IMG/VR virus record: IMGVR_UViG_3300027708_000048 | DNA length: 26,493 nucleotides | Strand: one strand, 5' to 3' | Origin: an uncultured virus (IMG/VR IMGVR_UViG_3300027708_000048) | Lineage: Duplodnaviria; Heunggongvirae; Uroviricota; Caudoviricetes | Shown here: one piece after another, positions 2,508 to 11,904 of the stretch | Layout: the number at the start of each line of letters is the position of its first letter | How positions within the stretch are numbered: the first letter of the stretch is position 1 | Made by a program: the position numbers and the translations under genes | Notes under the pieces: generated by a model | The model's database searches: none | What the model was told of the DNA's origin: nothing | Seen by the model: only the letters and a program-made list of their open reading frames with translations

Positions 2508-2732
2508 ATGCCCGAATACGATAACACAAACAGCGGAGCCGCCTTCAAGGTGTTCAACGCTAATCCTAAAGCCCCTCAATACTCTGGCCCTCTCAATGTG
2601 GATGGCAAGGAGTTTGAGGTCAGTATCTGGGAGAAGACCAGTAAGGCTGGAAAGCCTTTCTTCTCCATCAAAGTTGGCCCTCCTCGCCCCAAGAAGGACT
2701 TCAAGAAGTCAAGCGAGGAAATCCCATTTTAG
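2508..2732 (+). CDS. Small phage single-stranded DNA-binding-like protein (74 aa)
   Basis: MPEYDNTNSGAAF...PQYSG..NVDGKEFEVSIW...GKPFFSIKV with an acidic EEIPF C-terminus as in SSBs; directly after dnaB. Confidence 0.7.
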   Translation: MPEYDNTNSGAAFKVFNANPKAPQYSGPLNVDGKEFEVSIWEKTSKAGKPFFSIKVGPPRPKKDFKKSSEEIPF

Positions 2733-2766
2733 TTTCCAGTCGTAGTTGTTGACGATTGGGTGTGGG

Positions 2767-2807
2767 GAACCCCTCTCCGAGTTCATACGGAGGGGGGTTC
2801 TTTTTTT
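2767..2807 (+). terminator. Rho-independent terminator of the replication operon
   Basis: 13-bp stem GAACCCCTCTCCG / CGGAGGGGGGTTC (one G-U), 8-nt loop, followed by T7. Confidence 0.85.
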
Positions 2808-2868
2808 CTTGCATCGCCCCGAATTTCTGAAAGACTTTTCTCAAGCGGCACAACACCCGCCAACCACA

Positions 2869-3039
2869 ATGAAAACACAACACATCGCACCGCTACTAAA
2901 TCTAGCTCCCTTGTTCAAGGTGAGCATTGCACAAGCAAGACGACATGGGCTTGACGAGATCCGCATCTCCGTCCCTCGTGCCAAGGAAATCCTCCACGAC
3001 ATCGTTGTGGCAGGCAAGGCCATCAAGGAGAACAGATGA
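2869..3039 (+). CDS. Hypothetical protein (56 aa)
   Basis: ATG after an A/C-rich leader (CAACCACA-ATG), MKTQHIAPLL...; stop overlaps the next start (ATGA). Confidence 0.65.
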   Translation: MKTQHIAPLLNLAPLFKVSIAQARRHGLDEIRISVPRAKEILHDIVVAGKAIKENR

Positions 3040-3245
3040 GCGTATTCGTTATTATCTGGGGCGGCTTGGGCTGTGCAATGGCCTATATGCTGGGCCTGCA
3101 CTGCTATGGCCTCCATGTGAAGCAACAGCAACTCAAACAACTCGCTCGTCTCTTCCGAGATGATCGTGCCAACTTTGACTTGTATTTCTACAACATCGCA
3201 ATCGACATCACCAAACAGGAGATCGCAAAACAAAATGCAGAATGA
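3036..3245 (+). CDS. Hypothetical protein with N-terminal membrane anchor (69 aa)
   Basis: ATGA coupling; hydrophobic N-terminus MSVFVIIWGGLGCAMAYMLG. Confidence 0.65.
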   Translation: MSVFVIIWGGLGCAMAYMLGLHCYGLHVKQQQLKQLARLFRDDRANFDLYFYNIAIDITKQEIAKQNAE

Positions 3246-3396
3246 CATCGACACCCTCAAGTGGGAGATCCGTGAATACCTCAACCAGATCCAAGAGCTT
3301 GTCAACACGCTCAAGCAGATCCAGACCCTCAACTCACTAGGCAAGACAAAGAAGATTGCCGACACCATAAACGAAGCACTATGCAAGCAGTCCTAA
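3235..3396 (+). CDS. Hypothetical coiled-coil protein (53 aa)
   Basis: AAAACAAA-ATG, MQNDIDTLKWEIREYLNQIQELVNTLKQ with heptad pattern; overlaps both neighbours. Confidence 0.6.
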   Translation: MQNDIDTLKWEIREYLNQIQELVNTLKQIQTLNSLGKTKKIADTINEALCKQS

Positions 3397-3686
3397 AGCA
3401 TCGCACCCCCGACCAGTGGGCCGCTCACATTGAGCTATTGCCGAAGAAGATCCGCACCCAGATCGCCAAGATCGTATGGTGGGATTGGTTCGGCCCTCGC
3501 ATCGTTTCAGATCGCTGGGATCACCTAGACAAGTATGTGAATCAGAATTGCAGAGAGCTTGAGGATCACGAGGTACTGGAGGGCCTAGAGCTTCTTGGAT
3601 ACACCGAGACGCAAGCCAGACAACGCCTCTATCCAGACGAGAGAATCAGCCAGAAAACACCAAACCAAAACAAAACAAATGAGTAA
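3381..3686 (+). CDS. Hypothetical protein (101 aa)
   Basis: Fits the tightly packed operon; Trp-rich globular-looking sequence. Confidence 0.7.
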   Translation: MQAVLKHRTPDQWAAHIELLPKKIRTQIAKIVWWDWFGPRIVSDRWDHLDKYVNQNCRELEDHEVLEGLELLGYTETQARQRLYPDERISQKTPNQNKTNE

Positions 3687-4023
3687 CCTAATCGTGCCAG
3701 AAGAGTTTAAGGACAGAGCTTTAGTCCCCATGCAGTTCCCATTCCGAGCGGATGGTGATTGCATCCTAGATGCAGAAGGCCGTGAGGTGGCATCAATCTC
3801 TGCCGCCATCGCCATCAAGGAGAGCATCAATATAGCAAAGCTATTTGCCGCCGCTCCAGAGATGTTTGAGATTCTTGGCAGGGCTTATACCATTATCTTT
3901 ATATTTGCCGCACAGCGGGAAGGATTCGACCACGGAAACGATGACGAGGATAAGACCGATTGTCCCCTTTGTCAGATGGAGGACATTCTGCGTAAGGTCA
4001 ATAGCGGTATCCTGCCAGAATGA
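3679..4023 (+). CDS. Hypothetical phage protein (114 aa)
   Basis: CAAAACAAAACAA-ATG; contains AKLFAAAPEMFEIL, resembling the common phage NARLIAAAPELLEAL motif; CPLC near the C-terminus. Confidence 0.7.
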   Translation: MSNLIVPEEFKDRALVPMQFPFRADGDCILDAEGREVASISAAIAIKESINIAKLFAAAPEMFEILGRAYTIIFIFAAQREGFDHGNDDEDKTDCPLCQMEDILRKVNSGILPE

Positions 4024-4211
4024 GCGATAACGGAACCCACAATGGAGTTCCTTTAAGGATTGAGGCCGACGAATCTGGGAGCCATGCTAATGAGCTACAC
4101 TTATCCTATGTGATGAGGAAGGCCATTGATGGCTTCTGGAAGCGGAGGGGATTCGATAAGGAACCAGAACGCTTAACTACATTCATGCACGATAGGAGGA
4201 AGAAGAAATGA
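4020..4211 (+). CDS. Hypothetical protein (63 aa)
   Basis: ATGA overlaps at both ends. Confidence 0.65.
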   Translation: MSDNGTHNGVPLRIEADESGSHANELHLSYVMRKAIDGFWKRRGFDKEPERLTTFMHDRRKKK

Positions 4212-5341
4212 GATTTCACTGCTTGGGTATTCCCCACACAATTAGCAACGCTGACTACATAGCCTGTGCGTTCACGCAGAAGGTGGTTAAGTTCTGCGAG
4301 ATGATGAAGGCCAGAGGCCACTACATAATTCACTACGGACATGACAGAAGCGAAGTGGTGGCTGATGAGATCGTCGGCACTACTAACGATGCCGTCCTAA
4401 AGGAAGCCTACGGCGACTACGATTGGCACAGCAATGTGTTTAAGTTCGCAATGGATGATCCTGCCTACAAGATGTTCTATGCCAGAACAAACGAGGAGAT
4501 CGCTAAACGCAAGCAGTATGGCGACTTCCTCCTCTGCTTCTGGGGGCATGGACATCGCCCTGTAGCAGACGCTAACCCCGATATGATCGTCGTAGAGCCG
4601 GGGATCGGGTATCCCGGCGGCACATTCGCCCCATATAAGGTTTACGAATCGCAGTATATGCTAGGGGCCTTCCACGGAACCGAGGCCGTGGGAACGCCAG
4701 ATAAGTTCAGCTGGTATGATGCCGTGATTCCTAACTACTTTGACACGAGGCAGTTCACTTTCAACGCAGACAAGGAGGACTACTTCCTATTCATTGGCAG
4801 GATAGGCCATCATAAGGGGTTGCATATCGCTATTGAAGTGACGCAAGCCATCGGAGCCAAGCTAAAAGTGGCGGGACAGGGAGACATAAAGGCTATGGGC
4901 TACACGGAAATACCTAGTCATGTGGAGTTCGTGGGCTACGCAGGAGTGGAAGAGAGGCGTAAGCTAATGGCAAACGCTAAAGGGCAATTCGTAGCCACCA
5001 TGTATGGGGAGCCTTTCGGCGGAGTTCAGATTGAAGGTATGCTATCTGGCACTCCTATCATCTCTACTGACTGGGGTTGCTTCCAAGAGCTTAACCTCCA
5101 CGGCGTAACAGGATACCGATGCCGCACCTTTGAGCAGTTTGTCTGGGCCGCAAAGAACATCCATACCATCGACCCCAAAAAGTGTAGGGCTTGGGCCGAA
5201 AACTTTAGCATGGAGAAAGTTGCCGCAATGTATGAGGAATACTTTACCAGCATATCCAACATTTATGGCAAGGCTGGATGGTATGAACTTAACGAATCAC
5301 GAACAGAGTTAAGCTGGCTCTCACGCAACTACCCGCAATGA
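4208..5341 (+). CDS. GT-B fold glycosyltransferase (GT4 / glycosyl transferase group 1)
   Basis: VIPNYFD, YFLFIGRIGHHKGLHIAIE, VEFVGY, EPFGGVQIEGMLSGTPII (EX7E motif), HGVTGY. Confidence 0.92.
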   Translation: MRFHCLGIPHTISNADYIACAFTQKVVKFCEMMKARGHYIIHYGHDRSEVVADEIVGTTNDAVLKEAYGDYDWHSNVFKFAMDDPAYKMFYARTNEEIAKRKQYGDFLLCFWGHGHRPVADANPDMIVVEPGIGYPGGTFAPYKVYESQYMLGAFHGTEAVGTPDKFSWYDAVIPNYFDTRQFTFNADKEDYFLFIGRIGHHKGLHIAIEVTQAIGAKLKVAGQGDIKAMGYTEIPSHVEFVGYAGVEERRKLMANAKGQFVATMYGEPFGGVQIEGMLSGTPIISTDWGCFQELNLHGVTGYRCRTFEQFVWAAKNIHTIDPKKCRAWAENFSMEKVAAMYEEYFTSISNIYGKAGWYELNESRTELSWLSRNYPQ

Positions 5342-5445
5342 TAACGAATATAATCATATTCCTAGCACTCATGTTGGCGTTCTGCCTTATCTTCATTGGG
5401 CTGTGCCTGCTACCGAAGGGCGACGACCCAGATCGCCCCGCATAA
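5338..5445 (+). CDS. Small single-TM membrane peptide (35 aa; below the ORF-track cutoff)
   Basis: ATGA overlap with the GT stop; MITNIIIFLALMLAFCLIFIGLCLLPKGDDPDRPA. Confidence 0.55.
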   Translation: MITNIIIFLALMLAFCLIFIGLCLLPKGDDPDRPA

Positions 5446-5491
5446 TAATGGGATCGCCCTGCAAAGGCATCGCCCCGCATAATAAGGGGCG
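5432..5491 (+). repeat. Short direct repeats ATCGCCCCGCATAATAA x2 plus one partial copy
   Basis: Exact 17-mers at 5432-5448 and 5469-5485; partial ATCGCCCTGCA at 5453-5463; the second copy closes a CGCCCC/GGGGCG hairpin. Confidence 0.8.
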
Positions 5492-5565
5492 GGCGTGGAT
5501 GTCCGAGTTGAGGTGGCACTAAAGCATCGAAAGGGCCGAGCGAAGCGAGGGACTATTTTTGCAAC

Positions 5566-5602
5566 AAAAAAAAAGGGCCGGGAGGCGTAAGCCCCCCGAC
5601 CC
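5566..5602 (-). terminator. Rho-independent terminator of the minus-strand cassette
   Basis: Minus strand GGGTCGGGGGGC-TTAC-GCCTCCCGGCCC followed by T9; the stem is closed by G-U pairs on this strand. Confidence 0.85.
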
Positions 5603-5610
5603 AGATTCTG

Positions 5611-5703
5611 TTATTGTCTGAAGTGATCGTTAACGCAAGTAGCCATTGCGACGAGCCAGAAGGCGATCAGCCATTCCAGAAGTCGTTTACGGCTGTTGCT
5701 CAC
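5611..5703 (-). CDS. Small hydrophobic peptide (30 aa; below the ORF-track cutoff)
   Basis: GTG start overlaps the GATase TGA (GTGA); MSNSRKRLLEWLIAFWLVAMATCVNDHFRQ; ends just before the terminator. Confidence 0.5.
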   Translation of the reverse strand: MSNSRKRLLEWLIAFWLVAMATCVNDHFRQ

Positions 5704-6716
5704 TTGTAGTCTCCGATTCCGAGTTCGGAAGCGTCAACTGCGGCGATGGCATCCGCTTCAGTCATAAGCTCCCGCTGTTCTGCGGCCTCGTGTGCGGATA
5801 GCCAAGTAGCACTGCTGTTACTGGCTGATCCGTAGTTGCTATACTGCCAAGCCCCGGCTGATGACGCAGGGTATTCCTTGCGTTTGCGGTGCGTTGACTT
5901 GTCCCAGCCTTTGCCGAGGCTTTGCGAGGCAAAACCAAGCTGGCGGGTTGTCGCCTGCTTGTGCTTCCAGTCGCTTAACTCTGGCTCTTTGCCACCTTCG
6001 GCAAACTCAAGCCAAGTCCAAGCGGCTAGTGGATAAGCAGTGACTCCACTGCAGTTCCATGCATCTGCGACGGCTTCGACAATCTCTGGCGTGGTGCCAA
6101 AGATCCAACGCTCTTTGCTAGTTATGCCAGCGTAGAGCCTTGCCCTGTCGTCAACGGCAACGATAAGCTTGCCTTGCGGGTTAAGTGCAAGGAAAGCGGC
6201 GTAACCGCTGATGTGTTCCAATTGCTCCTTACGCTTGAGCATTGGCGTGTTGTCAGCCATTGCGATAAGCAAGTGCTGGCTGTCGCAAGTTACTTTCTCG
6301 TGTGATTTGCACTTTGGGCCTTCCCAGTTGATCACGCCATTGTGGGCGAGTGTCCAACCGCTCCTGCGGAACGGATGCACATTCTCTAGGTTGATGCCGC
6401 AAGTGGCTGTTCTGCCGTGACCGATCATATGACGGTCTGGCTTGTAACTGCCCTCGTGGGCTGTGCGATAGGTGGTTGCGAAGGCTTCTGCCATCTTGCC
6501 AGCTCTGCGATATAGATTCGGAATCCCATTCATATCGTGGAACTCATGCGGGTCGAGGTATCGGGCACGAAGGCCAGTCGAACCAGCCTGTGCGTAGCCG
6601 AAGCCGTCACGCTCGGTTTTTCTGATCTGATCGTGAGCGGCTTGTAGTGCCGCATCTGCCATTGCTTTTGCAAGTGGATTATTCTTGCTTGATGTCCATC
6701 CGACTAATTTACACAT
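5700..6716 (-). CDS. Class II (Ntn-hydrolase) glutamine amidotransferase
   Basis: Start at ATG 6716 gives the N-terminal nucleophile MCKLVG; ERDGFG, GHGRTAT, NVHPF, LAHNGVI, CDSQ, ISGYAAF motifs. Confidence 0.9.
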   Translation of the reverse strand: MCKLVGWTSSKNNPLAKAMADAALQAAHDQIRKTERDGFGYAQAGSTGLRARYLDPHEFHDMNGIPNLYRRAGKMAEAFATTYRTAHEGSYKPDRHMIGHGRTATCGINLENVHPFRRSGWTLAHNGVINWEGPKCKSHEKVTCDSQHLLIAMADNTPMLKRKEQLEHISGYAAFLALNPQGKLIVAVDDRARLYAGITSKERWIFGTTPEIVEAVADAWNCSGVTAYPLAAWTWLEFAEGGKEPELSDWKHKQATTRQLGFASQSLGKGWDKSTHRKRKEYPASSAGAWQYSNYGSASNSSATWLSAHEAAEQRELMTEADAIAAVDASELGIGDYK

Positions 6717-6738
6717 AATGTTGTTTCCTTTATTGTTG

Positions 6739-6987
6739 TTAACCGACGATTGTTGTCCATGCCTTTGCAAGTCGTGCAAGGAATGGTTTTTTGCGAAGCC
6801 TGTAGGATTTTTCTTTAGCAACCCTGCGGCTTCTTACCCTGTTGTATTCAATTTGCTTCTGGTAGGTTTCTGGAGAGAGCCAGACCTCGTATGTCTTCCA
6901 GCCAGATTTCCGCTTTTTATGCTGAAGCCCCCAGTATCTGAATCCGTCTTCTCTGGTGTCTCCAGCTTTGTGTTTTCTCTGTTTCAT
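6739..6987 (-). CDS. Small basic hypothetical protein, possibly DNA-binding (82 aa)
   Basis: ATGA coupling with the upstream gene; very Lys/Arg-rich; GDTREDG.RYWG...EVWLSPE. Confidence 0.65.
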   Translation of the reverse strand: MKQRKHKAGDTREDGFRYWGLQHKKRKSGWKTYEVWLSPETYQKQIEYNRVRSRRVAKEKSYRLRKKPFLARLAKAWTTIVG

Positions 6988-8240
6988 AATACGACTGGGT
7001 TACGGCGACGAAAGCCACGGACTCGGATGCCTGTTGCTTCAAACTCTTGCCAGAGTAGGTTGCAGGCTTCCCTGTCTTTCTGTGGCGTTGATGCCGCTCT
7101 GCACTTTTTGCGGATTACACGCAATGCATATGCAAGAGCCTCTGGTGCGTTAACTGATGACCAGCGAACGAACTCGGGCCAAGCAATGCGGGTTGTCTCT
7201 TCTGCAAGTGGATAGCTGTTAAGGCTATCTACATCTTGCCATTCTGACCACTTGGCTATTGCCTGCATGATGTCACGGCGACCGATCCAGTCTTCGACTT
7301 TCTTGGAAGTGCCCCACAGACGCATCTCTACAGTGCCTGTTCTGTTCCAAGTGTTTGCAGATAAGGCTGTTGCCTTAACTGATTTTGCACGATTGAACGA
7401 GCAACAGACAGTATTCATCTGCGACCAGTGCCCGGAGCGGCGGCTGTATGGAACAAGCCAACGCATCCAAGTCAGGTTATAACGCAGTGCTGAATAGACG
7501 CTCTCGCCTATGGCTTCGTTTTTGCCGCAGTTAATGTGGATGTGACCACCATTGCGGGATTGACTGCCCAGTGTGCGAACCAGACCGCATACAATGCGAG
7601 TGAGTTCTGGACGGATGAGGAACTGCGTCTCTGCCTGCCCTCCGCCATCACGAGCGAAGTTCAGATGAGCCGAGTGCTTCCAATACTCATGGCGACTGCT
7701 TGCAGAGCTTTTGCCTTTGGCAAGCTTGCGGATGCGGAATGTATCCATGCTGGTTGCCTCAAGCTCACCAGAGCAAGTGTAGAGCGGCATTGACTCATAG
7801 AGCGGCTTCTCGACTTTAGTTATGATATTGCTGTCGATGTGAGCCTTTTCCAGCTTGTGTATGGCATAACCAATTTCTTTTCGTAGTTGCAGGTCTAATT
7901 CGCAACCGATATATATATTTGTGCGTTGAGTTACTTGCCGCCACACATCTTTGACCGAGTATTTGCGGAAGATTGCCCTAAACTTGCGGCGACCTAATGC
8001 CATGCGGTAAACTTTACGCATAGTCTCACGCTCAAGCTTTGTGGTTTCTTCAGTGTTAGTTGCGTTGGTATACCATTGCTTGCGGCGATAGATGTCGTGC
8101 AAGCGTTTGAATTGATCACGCTCTAGTATGTCTGACAGACCCGCATTGCGAGGGGATGTGCCCCAGTTGCGAGCCTGCATGATGGTAAGGCCAGCGGCAT
8201 ATAGCGAGCCTTGGGACTTAACGATGGCTTGGTAGTTCAT
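6984..8240 (-). CDS. Putative amidoligase (glutamine-synthetase-fold COOH-NH2 ligase) with basic N-terminal extension
   Basis: Ordered motifs GELE, RDGG, ETQF..RP, NGGHIHIN, SRR, TVEMR match the GxExE / DGS / E / GxHxH / ExR pattern of amidoligases; next to a GATase II; ATG 8240 follows an A/C-rich leader. Confidence 0.75.
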   Translation of the reverse strand: MNYQAIVKSQGSLYAAGLTIMQARNWGTSPRNAGLSDILERDQFKRLHDIYRRKQWYTNATNTEETTKLERETMRKVYRMALGRRKFRAIFRKYSVKDVWRQVTQRTNIYIGCELDLQLRKEIGYAIHKLEKAHIDSNIITKVEKPLYESMPLYTCSGELEATSMDTFRIRKLAKGKSSASSRHEYWKHSAHLNFARDGGGQAETQFLIRPELTRIVCGLVRTLGSQSRNGGHIHINCGKNEAIGESVYSALRYNLTWMRWLVPYSRRSGHWSQMNTVCCSFNRAKSVKATALSANTWNRTGTVEMRLWGTSKKVEDWIGRRDIMQAIAKWSEWQDVDSLNSYPLAEETTRIAWPEFVRWSSVNAPEALAYALRVIRKKCRAASTPQKDREACNLLWQEFEATGIRVRGFRRRNPVVL

Positions 8241-8271
8241 AGTTAATGTTGTTGTTTGGGTGTGGTTGCGT

Positions 8272-8421
8272 TTACACGAAGAAGATAACTGCTTCGATGT
8301 AGACAATGAATGCAAATACCGCTGTGTATGCGGCTGTTTTTGCTATTGCTTTGCGGATTCCGCCAGCTTGGATTTTGGCGGTTTCCCATTTTTGCCATTT
8401 GGCATCTTGTGTTGTTTTCAT
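8272..8421 (-). CDS. Small tail-anchored membrane protein (49 aa; below the ORF-track cutoff)
   Basis: MKTTQDAKWQKWETAKIQAGGIRKAIAKTAAYTAVFAFIVYIEAVIFFV; first gene of the minus-strand cassette, A/C-rich leader. Confidence 0.6.
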   Translation of the reverse strand: MKTTQDAKWQKWETAKIQAGGIRKAIAKTAAYTAVFAFIVYIEAVIFFV

Positions 8422-9163: not shown

Positions 9164-9603
9164 AAAAGAGCGTGTGCGAATGTAAGATGGCACACTATTA
9201 GATTCCTGCGAAGCCTTCCTGTGCCCCAGCACATGAGCAATGTTAGCTACAAAGTTGATCAATTAATTCAGCATATAACATACCTAACATCTGGACAGAT
9301 CCAATCAACAACCATTATACCATTTGGATCATAACAGGATATACCATGCCGTTGTAGCCAATTAAGGAGGAGCCAAAGCGACGACGATAAGTGGCGTAAC
9401 AACGAGCAGAATACCAACCTACAAATGAAAACAATAGTGGACAATTAGCCGAAGGCTACACTGTTTCTGGGGGCGTTGCGGGGGGAACCCCCGCTAGAAA
9501 GGGGAGAAGGAGACAGCTTTGCTGGCTCATTCGGGGGGAAAGACCTTTCCCCCAAATGAACTCGACACGATGTAACGCTCATGATATTAAGTTAAATAAG
9601 CAT

Positions 9604-10107
9604 ATGGCAAAAGCACTCACAATCGACAGAGAACAAGTACGAGCAACCTTTGTAGCTACCGGCAGTTTAAAAGAGACAGGGCAACTCCACGGCATAAAAG
9701 AAAGCACCATCAGACAATGGGCTAAACGCTACCAATGGGAGACTGCCACCAATGTGCAGAAGCTACGAGCAAAAGCGGATGCGATTGTGGCAATCAAAAG
9801 AGAGAATGGACATGGAGATGTAACGCCTGTGTCACACAGTGCTGACGCACTTAACCAACACTTGGAGAACTCCTCGCACACATTCAAGACGAACATGGCT
9901 GGTGCGTTAGCACGATCTAGCTCGGCTTTAGCCGAGATGGATGGATTGTCTGCATTGGACAACAGCAGGAGGATGGTTGATTTGGCTACCGCCGCAAGCA
10001 AGGTATTCCCAAGCATGGCTGATGAGGCTGGGTTGAGTGTGAATGTGTTGAGTTTTAGTTTGGACTCGTTTGTGGCGGCTGGAGCGTTGCCAGAGCGAGC
10101 TGGCTAG
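9604..10107 (+). CDS. HTH protein, probable terminase small subunit (167 aa)
   Basis: N-terminal HTH GSLKETGQLHGIKESTIRQWAKRYQW followed by helical/coiled regions and a C-terminal beta strand (LSVNVL), the usual TerS architecture. Confidence 0.6.
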   Translation: MAKALTIDREQVRATFVATGSLKETGQLHGIKESTIRQWAKRYQWETATNVQKLRAKADAIVAIKRENGHGDVTPVSHSADALNQHLENSSHTFKTNMAGALARSSSALAEMDGLSALDNSRRMVDLATAASKVFPSMADEAGLSVNVLSFSLDSFVAAGALPERAG

Positions 10108-10208
10108 CCAGTGGAGGCTTACTGAAGTCCCAGTCCTTGTTTTGCCGGGAGGCAAAATAAGACGGCCAAGAGTAAGCTGGAACGAAGCTAGACTGCGGTC
10201 ATAGCGAG

Positions 10209-10513
10209 CCGAGTCCTTTATGGACGAGGGTTCCGAGGATGATACTTCATCCGAGGAACATCAGCCGAGCGAAGCGAGGCTGGGGGGGTTAACTCTATGC
10301 GAGGGCATTAAGCCCGAAGCATACGAGGATGATACTTCATCCGAGCGTTGTCCGAGTTAGGGTGGAGCGTTGCGGTGAGGGCCTTGTGCCCGAACTACGC
10401 CGAGCGGAGCGAGGCGAGGATGTGGCTTTCAGAGTTGAGGTGGCATGGTGCTTGCCAGTGAGGGCTTTGTGCCCGAACAACCGCCGAGCGAAGCGAGGCG
10501 GGGGGAGTTAACT
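10209..10513 (+). repeat. Array of nine hairpins with tandem GA/GA mismatches, built from mosaic repeats
   Basis: CGAGGATGATACTTCATCCGAG x2, GCCGAGCGRAGCGAGG x3, GTGAGGGCYTTGTGCCCGAAC x2, GGGGGRGTTAACT x2 (see findings). Confidence 0.9.
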
Positions 10514-10565
10514 TTTAAGCATTCTTTTTGCGGGAATAACAGCTGACGGGCACCCCCTTGGGCCA

Positions 10566-10589
10566 AGGAAGGTTCATTCCTCTTTTTTT
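10566..10589 (+). terminator. Weak terminator-like hairpin downstream of the terS-like gene and hairpin array
   Basis: AGGAA-GGTTCA-TTCCT followed by C and T7; convergent with the 10627-10875 gene. Confidence 0.35.
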
Positions 10590-10626
10590 CCAAAAGTCCC
10601 CATACAATTTTTTCTAAAATCCAGTG

Positions 10627-10875
10627 TCACTTCTTCTTTGGTTTGACTATCTGTGCTTTCACTGCTCTTCCGTAGATCGTCTGCTCGGCTACGCTTTCAG
10701 GCAACTGTTGGACGAATATTTTGAGGCGTAGGGCGTATTCTGCGTTTAGGAGGCCAACGATGTCGGAGAACTCGGCTCCTTGCGAGGCGAGTTGGGTTGC
10801 TTTGGAGTAAAGTTTTTGTTGGTTTTTGAGGTAGAGTTCGTCTGATATGTTTAGGTTTGTAGCTTTTTTAGACAT
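10627..10875 (-). CDS. Hypothetical protein (82 aa)
   Basis: Protein-like composition, A/C-rich leader, basic C-terminus KPKKK. Confidence 0.7.
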   Translation of the reverse strand: MSKKATNLNISDELYLKNQQKLYSKATQLASQGAEFSDIVGLLNAEYALRLKIFVQQLPESVAEQTIYGRAVKAQIVKPKKK

Positions 10876-11220
10876 GATTGGAAGATGTGTTTATGGTGTA
10901 GACAGATTGTAGAACCCGCTGGCGAAAAGAAAAGAAGGAAAATCCCTAAAAAGGAAGAAAAGAAAACTGCATAAGAAGCCCTATGTTGATAGAGCTTCTT
11001 GATTCCCCTCGGCTAAAGAACGACCTATGGAGCCTTGTCTGGATTGGTTGACTGGGAGTAGAAGGAGCCAATGCGAAGATGGCTCTCATTATTAAAGCAG
11101 GACGGCGAGTACCCTGCTTCTTTCCTTCACCAGCGAGGCCCTGTTCGGAACTACCTCGGTGGCTACACCATCCAACAATCTTGTTGCTGGATTGGGGGAA
11201 TCTAGGATATGGAGTGATGC

Positions 11221-11904
11221 GTGTCAATTGATATTTTTTATAGGAGCTATGCAGGGGATGCGGAGTGGCTGAAATACAGCTTGAAGTCTGTGGAGAAGTA
11301 TTGTGATGGGTTTGGGGGAGTCCATGTGGCGATTCCTGCTTCTGACATGGGGACGATGCCCTCTGTGGGGGGAGAGGTGGTTCATTTGGTGGAGCAGAGA
11401 CTGACTGGGTATTTGGATCAGCAAGTGACCAAGCTCCATGCCGATGAGTTTTGCAGGGGGGAGTATGTGCTTCATGTGGATAGTGACTGCGTGTTTTATC
11501 GGGATACTAGGCCAGAGGATTTCTTTCTTGATGGGAAGCCTGTTATTTTGCGTGAGGAGGGCGTGGAAAGCCCTTGGTTTGAGATTTCCGCTAGGTCGCT
11601 TGGGTGGAAGTGTGATGGCGAGTATATGAGGCGTTTACCGATTATTTATCCGAGGTGGATTTACAAGGCGTTTAGGATCTGGATGGAGGAGAAGCATGGA
11701 TGTAAGGTGGGGGATTGGATTGGGAGACAGCCGGGGCATGAGTTTAGTGAGTTTAATACTTTGGGTCAGTGGGCATATAAGTTCCATAGGAGAGAGTTTA
11801 CTTGGTTGCATCCGAAGGATTGGCCTGTGTATTGCAAGCAGTATTGGAGTTGGGGAGGCATAGGGGAGCATAGGGTAGAGATAGAGAAGATACTTGCAAA
11901 GTAG
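11221..11904 (+). CDS. GT-A-like glycosyltransferase-related protein (DUF6492-like)
   Basis: IDIFYRSY..D..WL.YSL.S, GYLDQQVTKLHAD, DxD-type VLHVDSDCVF, FSEFNTLG; GTG start. Confidence 0.7.
   Translation: MSIDIFYRSYAGDAEWLKYSLKSVEKYCDGFGGVHVAIPASDMGTMPSVGGEVVHLVEQRLTGYLDQQVTKLHADEFCRGEYVLHVDSDCVFYRDTRPEDFFLDGKPVILREEGVESPWFEISARSLGWKCDGEYMRRLPIIYPRWIYKAFRIWMEEKHGCKVGDWIGRQPGHEFSEFNTLGQWAYKFHRREFTWLHPKDWPVYCKQYWSWGGIGEHRVEIEKILAK

Follow-up and report, generated by a model that had tools for sequence, protein, structure and literature searches.

In Enterobacteria, REP/BIME elements are clusters of short, imperfect and strand-asymmetric palindromes, which lie outside genes at gene 3' ends or convergent junctions and vary between strains; they come in many near-identical copies of alternating orientation and are linked to a RAYT gene. 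T4-type phages carry promoter-early stem-loop cassettes, intergenic modules at mosaic borders that combine a promoter with perfect stems and promote exchange. Rfam lists the GA-cis family (RF02987) as a candidate 5' cis-regulatory element whose function is unknown. Here, we describe an array of hairpins at positions 10,209 to 10,513 of a 26,493-nt stretch of DNA (the window) from the IMG/VR record IMGVR_UViG_3300027708_000048, an uncultured virus of the Caudoviricetes. The array consists of "GA-clamped" mini-hairpins in a modular cluster that evolves fast. In each of them, a tandem G-A/A-G mismatch in Y-GA-R context lies between Watson-Crick outer and inner stems, and the loop is GNA or T-rich. 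We tentatively read the array as a strand-specific element of single-stranded DNA (ssDNA).

Hairpins of this size are also known to work as DNA. According to the review PMC13037366, DNA mini-hairpins with the motifs GCGNAGC and GCGNNAGC melt at 76.5 C in comparison to 39 C for the RNA version, bind SSB (the protein that binds single strands of DNA) poorly, resist nucleases and are used at the G4 origin, at RSF1010 ssiA and at the N4 early promoters.

Architecture of the array

The initial annotation had placed nine hairpins here, and all nine are found in the sequence together with the four different inner stems it had named (GTCC, GGATGA, GC and GGGC). For the scans, we used a descriptor made of a Watson-Crick outer stem, GA, a Watson-Crick inner stem of at least 2 pairs, a loop of 3-7 nt, and again inner stem, GA and outer stem. 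On the + strand, eight of the nine hairpins fit this descriptor perfectly, seven with an outer stem of at least 2 bp and the one at 10324-10345 with 1 bp; the ninth (10296-10323) has a 1-nt bulge and takes the same shape in RNAfold. The parts are as follows:

10209..10229, + strand: hairpin H1, CC-GA-GTCC-tttat-GGAC-GA-GG (descriptor scan)
10230..10259, + strand: hairpin H2, GTTCC-GA-GGATGA-tact-TCATCC-GA-GGAAC (descriptor and fold; identical in the relative L128)
10262..10282, + strand: hairpin H3, CAGCC-GA-GC-gaa-GC-GA-GGCTG, with a GCGAAGC cap (descriptor and fold; identical in L128)
10283..10293, + strand: G run and GTTAAC after H3, recurring after H9 (direct repeat D4, 39 nt, 90%)
10296..10323, + strand: hairpin H4, TATGC-GA-GGGC-attaa-GCCC-GA-a-GCATA, with the 1-nt bulge (fold)
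10324..10345, + strand: hairpin H5, C-GA-GGATGA-tact-TCATCC-GA-G, a copy of the H2 core (descriptor; direct repeat D1)
10354..10419, + strand: composite unit III with leader GAGTTAGGGTGG, H6 (10375-10395, GT-GA-GGGC-cttgt-GCCC-GA-AC) and H7 (10398-10416, CGCC-GA-GC-gga-GC-GA-GGCG, with a GCGGAGC cap) (repeats D2 and D3; descriptor)
10432..10513, + strand: composite unit IV with leader GAGTTGAGGTGG, a hairpin without GA (10441-10457), H8 (10458-10478, GT-GA-GGGC-tttgt-GCCC-GA-AC), H9 (10481-10501, CCGCC-GA-GC-gaa-GC-GA-GGCGG), and a G run with GAGTTAAC (repeats; descriptor)
5497..5552, + strand: dispersed short copy of the composite unit, a leader with CC-GA-GC-gaa-GC-GA-GG at 5536-5550 (descriptor; repeat comparison)
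10136..10161, + strand: perfect hairpin without GA ahead of the array, 11-nt arms and 4-nt loop (inverted repeat I1)

The last two entries, the perfect hairpin at 10441-10457 and an overlapping mini-hairpin at 10225-10237 are additions to the initial annotation. GCGAAGC caps close H3, H9 and the hairpin at 5536-5550. The array had been described as non-coding, and this holds, as its only open reading frame (ORF; 10329-10511, 60 aa) has no family match and lies in a stretch that is not alignable in relatives.

The dispersed copy follows a glycosyltransferase gene at the only other + to - convergent junction of the window, with a T run 6 nt downstream of its hairpin. Both GA loci of the window follow + genes in sense, at their 3' ends, and occupy its only two + to - convergent junctions. 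The dispersed copy is followed, at 5560-5600, by a strong hairpin that is preceded by an A run and, on the - strand, trailed by a T run, which looks like the terminator of the - strand gene.

Chance expectation and strand specificity

Shuffled sequence of like composition, proposed as a control in the initial annotation, does not reach the hairpin density of the array. Region 10200-10515 holds 7 GA/GA hairpins, in comparison to a mean of 0.075 (standard deviation 0.28, maximum 2) in 2000 dinucleotide-preserving shuffles; with 1-bp outer stems allowed, the count is 9 against a shuffle mean of 0.31 (maximum 4). When 2x2 loops of all dinucleotide combinations were counted, GA/GA appeared seven times, AT/AT twice, and AC/GG and CT/TA once each, and the two AT/AT cases are merely a paired part of a stem, which leaves GA/GA as the only recurrent 2x2 loop. 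In profiles of perfect-hairpin density along G000 and G003, the array region does not stand out.

The design is strand-specific. Throughout the 37.5 kb virus record, 13 descriptor matches lie on the + strand (7 in the array, 1 at 5536-5550) and 2 on the - strand, and the - strand of the array region has none. With RNA parameters, the minimum free energy of the region is -142.7 for the + strand (z -4.0, equalled by 0 of 100 shuffles) and -107.3 for the - strand (z -3.0). Summed over single hairpins, the + and - strands reach -93.6 and -75.4 kcal/mol with RNA parameters, and -44.3 and -40.9 kcal/mol when the strands are folded separately with DNA parameters, as had been suggested. Nearest-neighbour DNA parameters miss the extra stability of mini-hairpins and give the hairpins only -0.3 to -8 kcal/mol each. 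The + strand is better hairpin by hairpin under both parameter sets, and the strand specificity claimed at the outset is retained with one correction, namely that the hairpins of the - strand are weaker, not abolished.

Turnover and covariation among relatives

Searching with the helix-turn-helix (HTH) protein encoded upstream of the array, we obtained 6 viral and 17 metagenome loci, one per set being identical to the window. The gene order is the same in all loci, namely the HTH gene, a variable spacer of 70-850 nt and a conserved non-coding block, and the array position adjoins the terS-like HTH gene in all 15 distinct relatives.

10513..10630, + strand: conserved non-coding block with motifs at 10513-10531, 10543-10554 (CTGACGGGCACC) and 10598-10630 (alignment A2, 9 relatives, down to 50% protein identity)

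This block is more conserved than the neighbouring protein and could be an origin, a regulatory site or an RNA. The content of the spacer differs from relative to relative: when GA/GA hairpins whose outer stem has 2 bp or more are counted, there are 8 in L128 (94% identity), 7 in L131, 4 in L123 and 3 in L121, and 0 in L130, L134, L136, L122, L139 and L143, so that four of ten relatives keep the full design. If a 1-bp outer stem is allowed, L130, L134 and L136 carry minimal C-GA-GC-loop-GC-GA-G hairpins. The clade with 50-53% identity (L139-L143) has about ten GTAAGACA/TGTCTTAC iterons in both orientations in place of the GA hairpins. The iteron region of this clade also contains a TGTATAAT-like -10 element, and L139 and L140 have an extra - strand ORF downstream of the HTH gene.

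Turnover reaches down to very close strains. In contigs of two runs and in L128, H4 and H5 are replaced by 17 other letters; near-identical strains have 105 nt swapped for 95 nt and differ by an insertion of 18 nt, and in L128 a 7-nt direct repeat bounds an additional block of about 250 bases. The borders of these changes resemble replacement and microhomology, not insertion with target duplication. For the copy at 5497-5552, a positional homologue was not found, since the glycosyltransferase is widely shared and stands in varied contexts.

In the five hairpins that can be aligned one-to-one with L128 (H1, H2, H3, H8 and H9), only one compensatory pair and one loop base differ, and none of the 20 GA bases is changed. 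The compensatory change lies in H1, where 10214 T>A is accompanied by 10224 A>T (T-A to A-T), and is seen in contigs of three runs and in L128. The hairpin at 10136-10161 covaries as well: its stem in L128 differs in sequence and still pairs. Furthermore, L128:907-1125 and L123:3664-3880 share a three-hairpin sub-block of about 150 nt (85% identity) that is absent from the window. Two stems of this sub-block show compensatory pairs (one and three), an indication of module exchange between the arrays of different phages. The clade as a whole has 33 unique GA hairpins, built from 13 inner stems, 19 outer stems and 20 loops, and the mismatch keeps its context: 29 of the 33 read YGAG at the 5' side, and 29 of the 33 read CGAR at the 3' side. 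These data bear out the earlier statements that structure rather than sequence is conserved and that the GA/GA motif does not change. Homologous loci, to which the initial annotation had pointed as a test, give a divided answer: compensatory changes are present, and six of the ten arrays are without the full GA/GA design (outer stem of at least 2 bp). Judged from the sequences, selection probably acts on the folding of the + strand alone.

Loops and pairing fit DNA better than RNA

We compiled the loops of 116 unique non-seed GA/GA hairpins, a sample that includes chance hairpins. Among the triloops, 28 of 55 are GNA; the tetraloops are GNNA in 9 of 24 cases, GNRA in 1 of 24 and UNCG in 0 of 24, and T-rich pentaloops are recurrent. 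Beside 44 all-Watson-Crick hairpins (258 pairs), internal G-T pairs were seen 3 times in comparison to 2 for the A-C control. As G-T pairs are about as rare as this control, wobble is not used. The GCGNAGC or GCGNNAGC motif itself is present in H3, H7, H9 and the hairpin at 5536-5550. The loop rules of DNA mini-hairpins, together with the lack of G-T wobble, favour folding as ssDNA over a structured RNA. We therefore tentatively infer that the functional state is ssDNA rather than RNA, in line with the single-strand function proposed in the initial annotation. A terminator scan returned 0 terminator-like sites in 10209-10501 and one at 10559-10576 (3 sites found in total, 2.1 expected in shuffles), and no promoter-like site was found in the array.

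Occurrence in unrelated viruses

The 15-mer of the simplest hairpin is present at at least 118 viral loci, a count that alone is near chance by arithmetic. Among the matches listed, the outer stem is longer by at least one pair, in many different sequences, at 83 of 123 distinct seeds, in comparison to about 31 expected at 25% per pair. Other GA/GA hairpins within 300 nt accompany 37 of the listed seeds on the same strand (60 hairpins) and 16 on the opposite strand (18 hairpins). Of 85 unrelated seeds among the matches listed, 36 lie inside long open frames and are probably chance matches; across these 85 we found no rule of orientation relative to flanking frames, and the 14 array loci are noisy in this respect.

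Two unrelated complete phages with terminal repeats have one-strand GA clusters in ORF-poor DNA. In L145 (G001:199000-205000, from a 230 kb phage), 10 GA hairpins lie on the + strand and 0 on the - strand at 2600-4460, within more than 3 kb that is without an ORF of 90 aa; in L144, from a 121 kb phage, the numbers are 9 and 2.

Comparison with described elements

The initial annotation had named no known element with this multi-copy design. This has to be amended, because GA-cis has the same two GA-flanked hairpins; the match itself remains below the cut-off. Unit IV (10435-10512) aligns to positions 1-88 of the GA-cis model with 17.9 bits, in comparison to a gathering score of 34.7, and with E-values of 0.44 for a 601-nt search and 0.0065 for the record. 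Both consist of two neighbouring hairpins, each bracketed by GA, the second of which is capped by GC-GAA(A)-GC; the cap is GAA here and GAAA in the model, one deletion apart. The array differs from GA-cis in being multi-copy and in lying at the 3' end of a gene. Neither the loci of seven relatives nor 20 seed loci gave a GA-cis match, and the motif is not named in the main text of Weinberg et al. 2017.

With the natural DNA mini-hairpin sites, the array shares GCGNAGC caps, a predominance of GNA loops and a single-strand logic. Those sites (G4, ssiA, N4; PMC13037366) are single hairpins with fully paired stems that adjoin a known primase or virion RNA polymerase, whereas the array has nine hairpins, all with the tandem GA clamp, and no such enzyme was found. 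An N4-type promoter in particular can be rejected: such a promoter has a fully paired 5-bp stem with a 3-base GGA or GAA loop (PMC13037366), whereas here GAA and GGA loops are present with only 2 pairs below the loop before the GA mismatch, and no N4-kind virion RNA polymerase was found in the genome (Pfam, PHROG, NCBIfam, PDB).

The location outside genes, at gene 3' ends or convergent junctions, and the strain variability recall REP/BIME. In contrast to these, there are two loci in 37.5 kb and not hundreds, one orientation and several unrelated stem sequences, and we found no RAYT-like gene among the ORFs scanned and no flanking conserved tetranucleotide. The T4-type cassettes are likewise intergenic stem-loop modules at mosaic borders, whereas the array is without a promoter-like site and its GA is obligatory.

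Other candidates do not fit. A K-turn or box C/D GA motif is rejected on the lack of a 3-nt bulge, as the 2x2 loop is symmetric in eight of the nine hairpins and the remaining one bulges by 1 nt. TIGR arrays alternate two repeats of 8-12 nt, with spacers of 9 nt, and adjoin a gene for a Nop-domain protein (PMC12045711); the present array has no regular period, and family scans gave no Nop-domain match, which speaks against a TIGR or CRISPR-like array. A row of terminators is rejected as well, since 10209-10501 contains no G+C-rich hairpin followed by a T run. Besides, Rfam at gathering score and ARAGORN returned nothing in the window. The building blocks, GNA mini-hairpins and sheared tandem G-A pairs, are well known; a multi-copy GA-clamped genomic array is not found in the searched literature, and full-text searches returned no description of such arrays in phages.

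Competing explanations

According to the tentatively favoured reading, the hairpins would fold in + strand DNA whenever this is unwound, be it as the lagging-strand template of rightward forks or, in transcription of the upstream operon, as the non-template strand. Owing to their extra stability, the caps would remain folded there, keep SSB away and withstand nucleases, resulting in a multivalent landing, priming or stalling zone beside the conserved non-coding block, with a working mode like that of ssi-type signals or REP/BIME clusters. At ssi-type signals (G4 type, ssiA), priming on the SSB-coated strand depends on primase and on orientation. A partner that binds the hairpins and a role in replication or recombination would follow from this. 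Besides loops and pairing, we count for the ssDNA reading the conserved position beside the block with iterons at the same place in distant relatives, the DnaB-like helicase, SSB-like protein, Erf and exonuclease encoded by the phage, and the one-strand clusters in L145 and L144. Several findings weigh against it. Cumulative GC skew has no switch at the array, RNA parameters favour the + strand as well, the loop statistics include chance hairpins, and Rfam files GA-cis as an RNA. In the jumbo phage G001, an OTKONC RNA (RF03053, 160 bits), on which a literature search found no paper, and four repeated terminator-like hairpins lie near the GA hairpins on the same strand. The location of the GA loci at 3' ends of + genes and convergent junctions is at least equally compatible with a role at the 3' end of an RNA or with a safe haven for repeats. 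Moreover, the full design is missing from six of ten relatives' arrays, and L147, a relative whose glycosyltransferase is 95% identical, lacks the 5497-5552 copy, which implies that the element is dispensable or replaceable.

The array could instead act as a structured RNA, be it a non-coding RNA or the untranslated 3' part of the + operon transcript. Its GA hairpins would then block exonucleases, insulate the convergent units from each other or offer multivalent sites to a protein that recognises tandem sheared G-A pairs. We rank this reading only just behind the ssDNA one; the sense orientation directly 3' of a + gene at both + to - convergent junctions of the window, the + strand fold that no shuffle equals, the alignment of unit IV across the whole GA-cis RNA model, the T run after the 5536-5550 copy, and the G001 hairpins on the strand of the flanking genes and of the OTKONC RNA are all in its favour. 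An RNA would be expected to use the RNA-stable loops and G-U pairs that are avoided or almost missing here, and two-pair GC stems with triloops are weak in RNA, as the melting temperatures in PMC13037366 illustrate. The only terminator-like site of the region lies downstream, at 10559-10576, and the unrelated seeds keep no orientation rule relative to the flanking frames.

A REP-like selfish or neutral repeat, which spreads at the DNA level by local duplication, microhomology recombination or a hairpin-specific enzyme and persists in promoter-free convergent spacers without a dedicated role, would explain the extreme variability between near-identical strains, the loss of the design in six relatives' arrays, the location of both copies in convergent spacers and the all-Watson-Crick stems. 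Nevertheless, it ranks third and is distinctly unlikely, as only two loci and no dispersed family exist in the record, all copies have a single orientation, no transposase-like family was found among the ORFs scanned and the indel borders indicate replacement or microhomology without target duplication; furthermore, compensatory changes and a GA that stays constant across 66-94% protein identity speak for a fold under purifying selection. Finally, the region could be bound as double-stranded DNA, as a pac or cos-type site for the terS-like protein with CGAG repeats as iterons. The constant neighbourhood of the HTH gene and the true iterons (GTAAGACA) at the same place in distant relatives would suit such a site, which we still consider very improbable. 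Recognition of a duplex should give neither stems that vary and yet pair nor a strand asymmetry; besides, the assignment to terS is weak, four records (one of them rated complete and linear) place the locus mid-genome, and only one contig (L142) ends at the conserved block.

Genome setting and neighbouring genes

The window represents the minus strand of the 37.5 kb record, which originates from freshwater metagenomes and is rated 85% complete. No DNA match to the window was found in GenBank phages, where the closest DnaB relative has 30% identity. Recognisable genes encode an exonuclease, a DnaB-like helicase, an SSB-like protein, Erf, a phosphoesterase, a glycosyltransferase and an amidotransferase-like protein. 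Among the ORFs scanned, neither a primase nor a polymerase could be recognised. An 1859-aa protein and other large proteins have no match in Pfam, PHROG, NCBIfam or PDB sequences, with remote homology still possible. The array is flanked by a + strand gene and a convergent - strand gene:

9556..10107, + strand: upstream gene for the 183-aa HTH protein, terS-like (not established) (Pfam, PHROG)
10627..10875, - strand: convergent gene for an 82-aa protein without family, reading frame kept in relatives (ORF list, family scans, relatives' sequences)

The position beside a terS gene claimed in the initial annotation is kept in relatives, and the terS label itself depends on weak HTH-type matches. 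The 183-aa protein matches HTH_28 (2.2e-5) and Terminase_5 (2.5e-5) in Pfam and small-terminase families in PHROG (4e-5 to 9e-4), and none of its 61 homologue clusters has an informative name. Its AlphaFold model (pLDDT 71.5) has an N-terminal HTH and long helices, and the best match in a PDB fold search with this model, 2ao9, is not significant (E 0.72).

The start of the HTH gene lies at 20.3 kb in the record and at 20.8-21.9 kb in three relatives of 42.6-44.6 kb, one of which is rated complete and linear and contains the record in collinear alignment; consequently, the array lies mid-genome and not at an end, about 21 kb into a roughly 44 kb linear phage. A genome terminus or terminal repeat is thus ruled out, and the role at a packaging end that had been suggested is unlikely.

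Some further observations concern the surroundings. Window positions 10700-11700 have a + strand GC skew of +0.36 to +0.45, the highest of the record, yet the conserved small ORFs there are on the - strand. At 4208-8315, the glycosyltransferase (PHROG 3408, E 1e-143) adjoins a - strand pair, the amidotransferase-like protein and a 443-aa protein without family, and these genes may form a DNA or surface modification module. Upstream of the window, L126:4603-6831 encodes a 742-aa protein, the nearest atlas clusters of which are viral; in one of them (score 0.97), 19% of members carry SU10_portal, and this protein, 14 kb from the terS-like gene, is possibly a portal.

Biological meaning

At the array, a hypervariable mosaic border adjoins a non-coding block that is among the best conserved of this lineage, in what is likely a control or origin region. 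A wider view, which is doubtful at present, is that GA-clamped arrays constitute an undescribed class of strand-specific ssDNA signal in diverse phages, from this 44 kb freshwater lineage to phages of 120-230 kb. Such arrays would present SSB-free hairpins on one strand, the many copies of which would attract or halt a factor of replication or recombination, or else titrate one of the host, and GA-cis would be a two-hairpin member of the class. If the hairpins act as folded ssDNA, they would represent a rare natural case in which a non-Watson-Crick clamp makes a strand-specific signal in the genome of a double-stranded DNA phage, and the orphan GA-cis design would gain a function.

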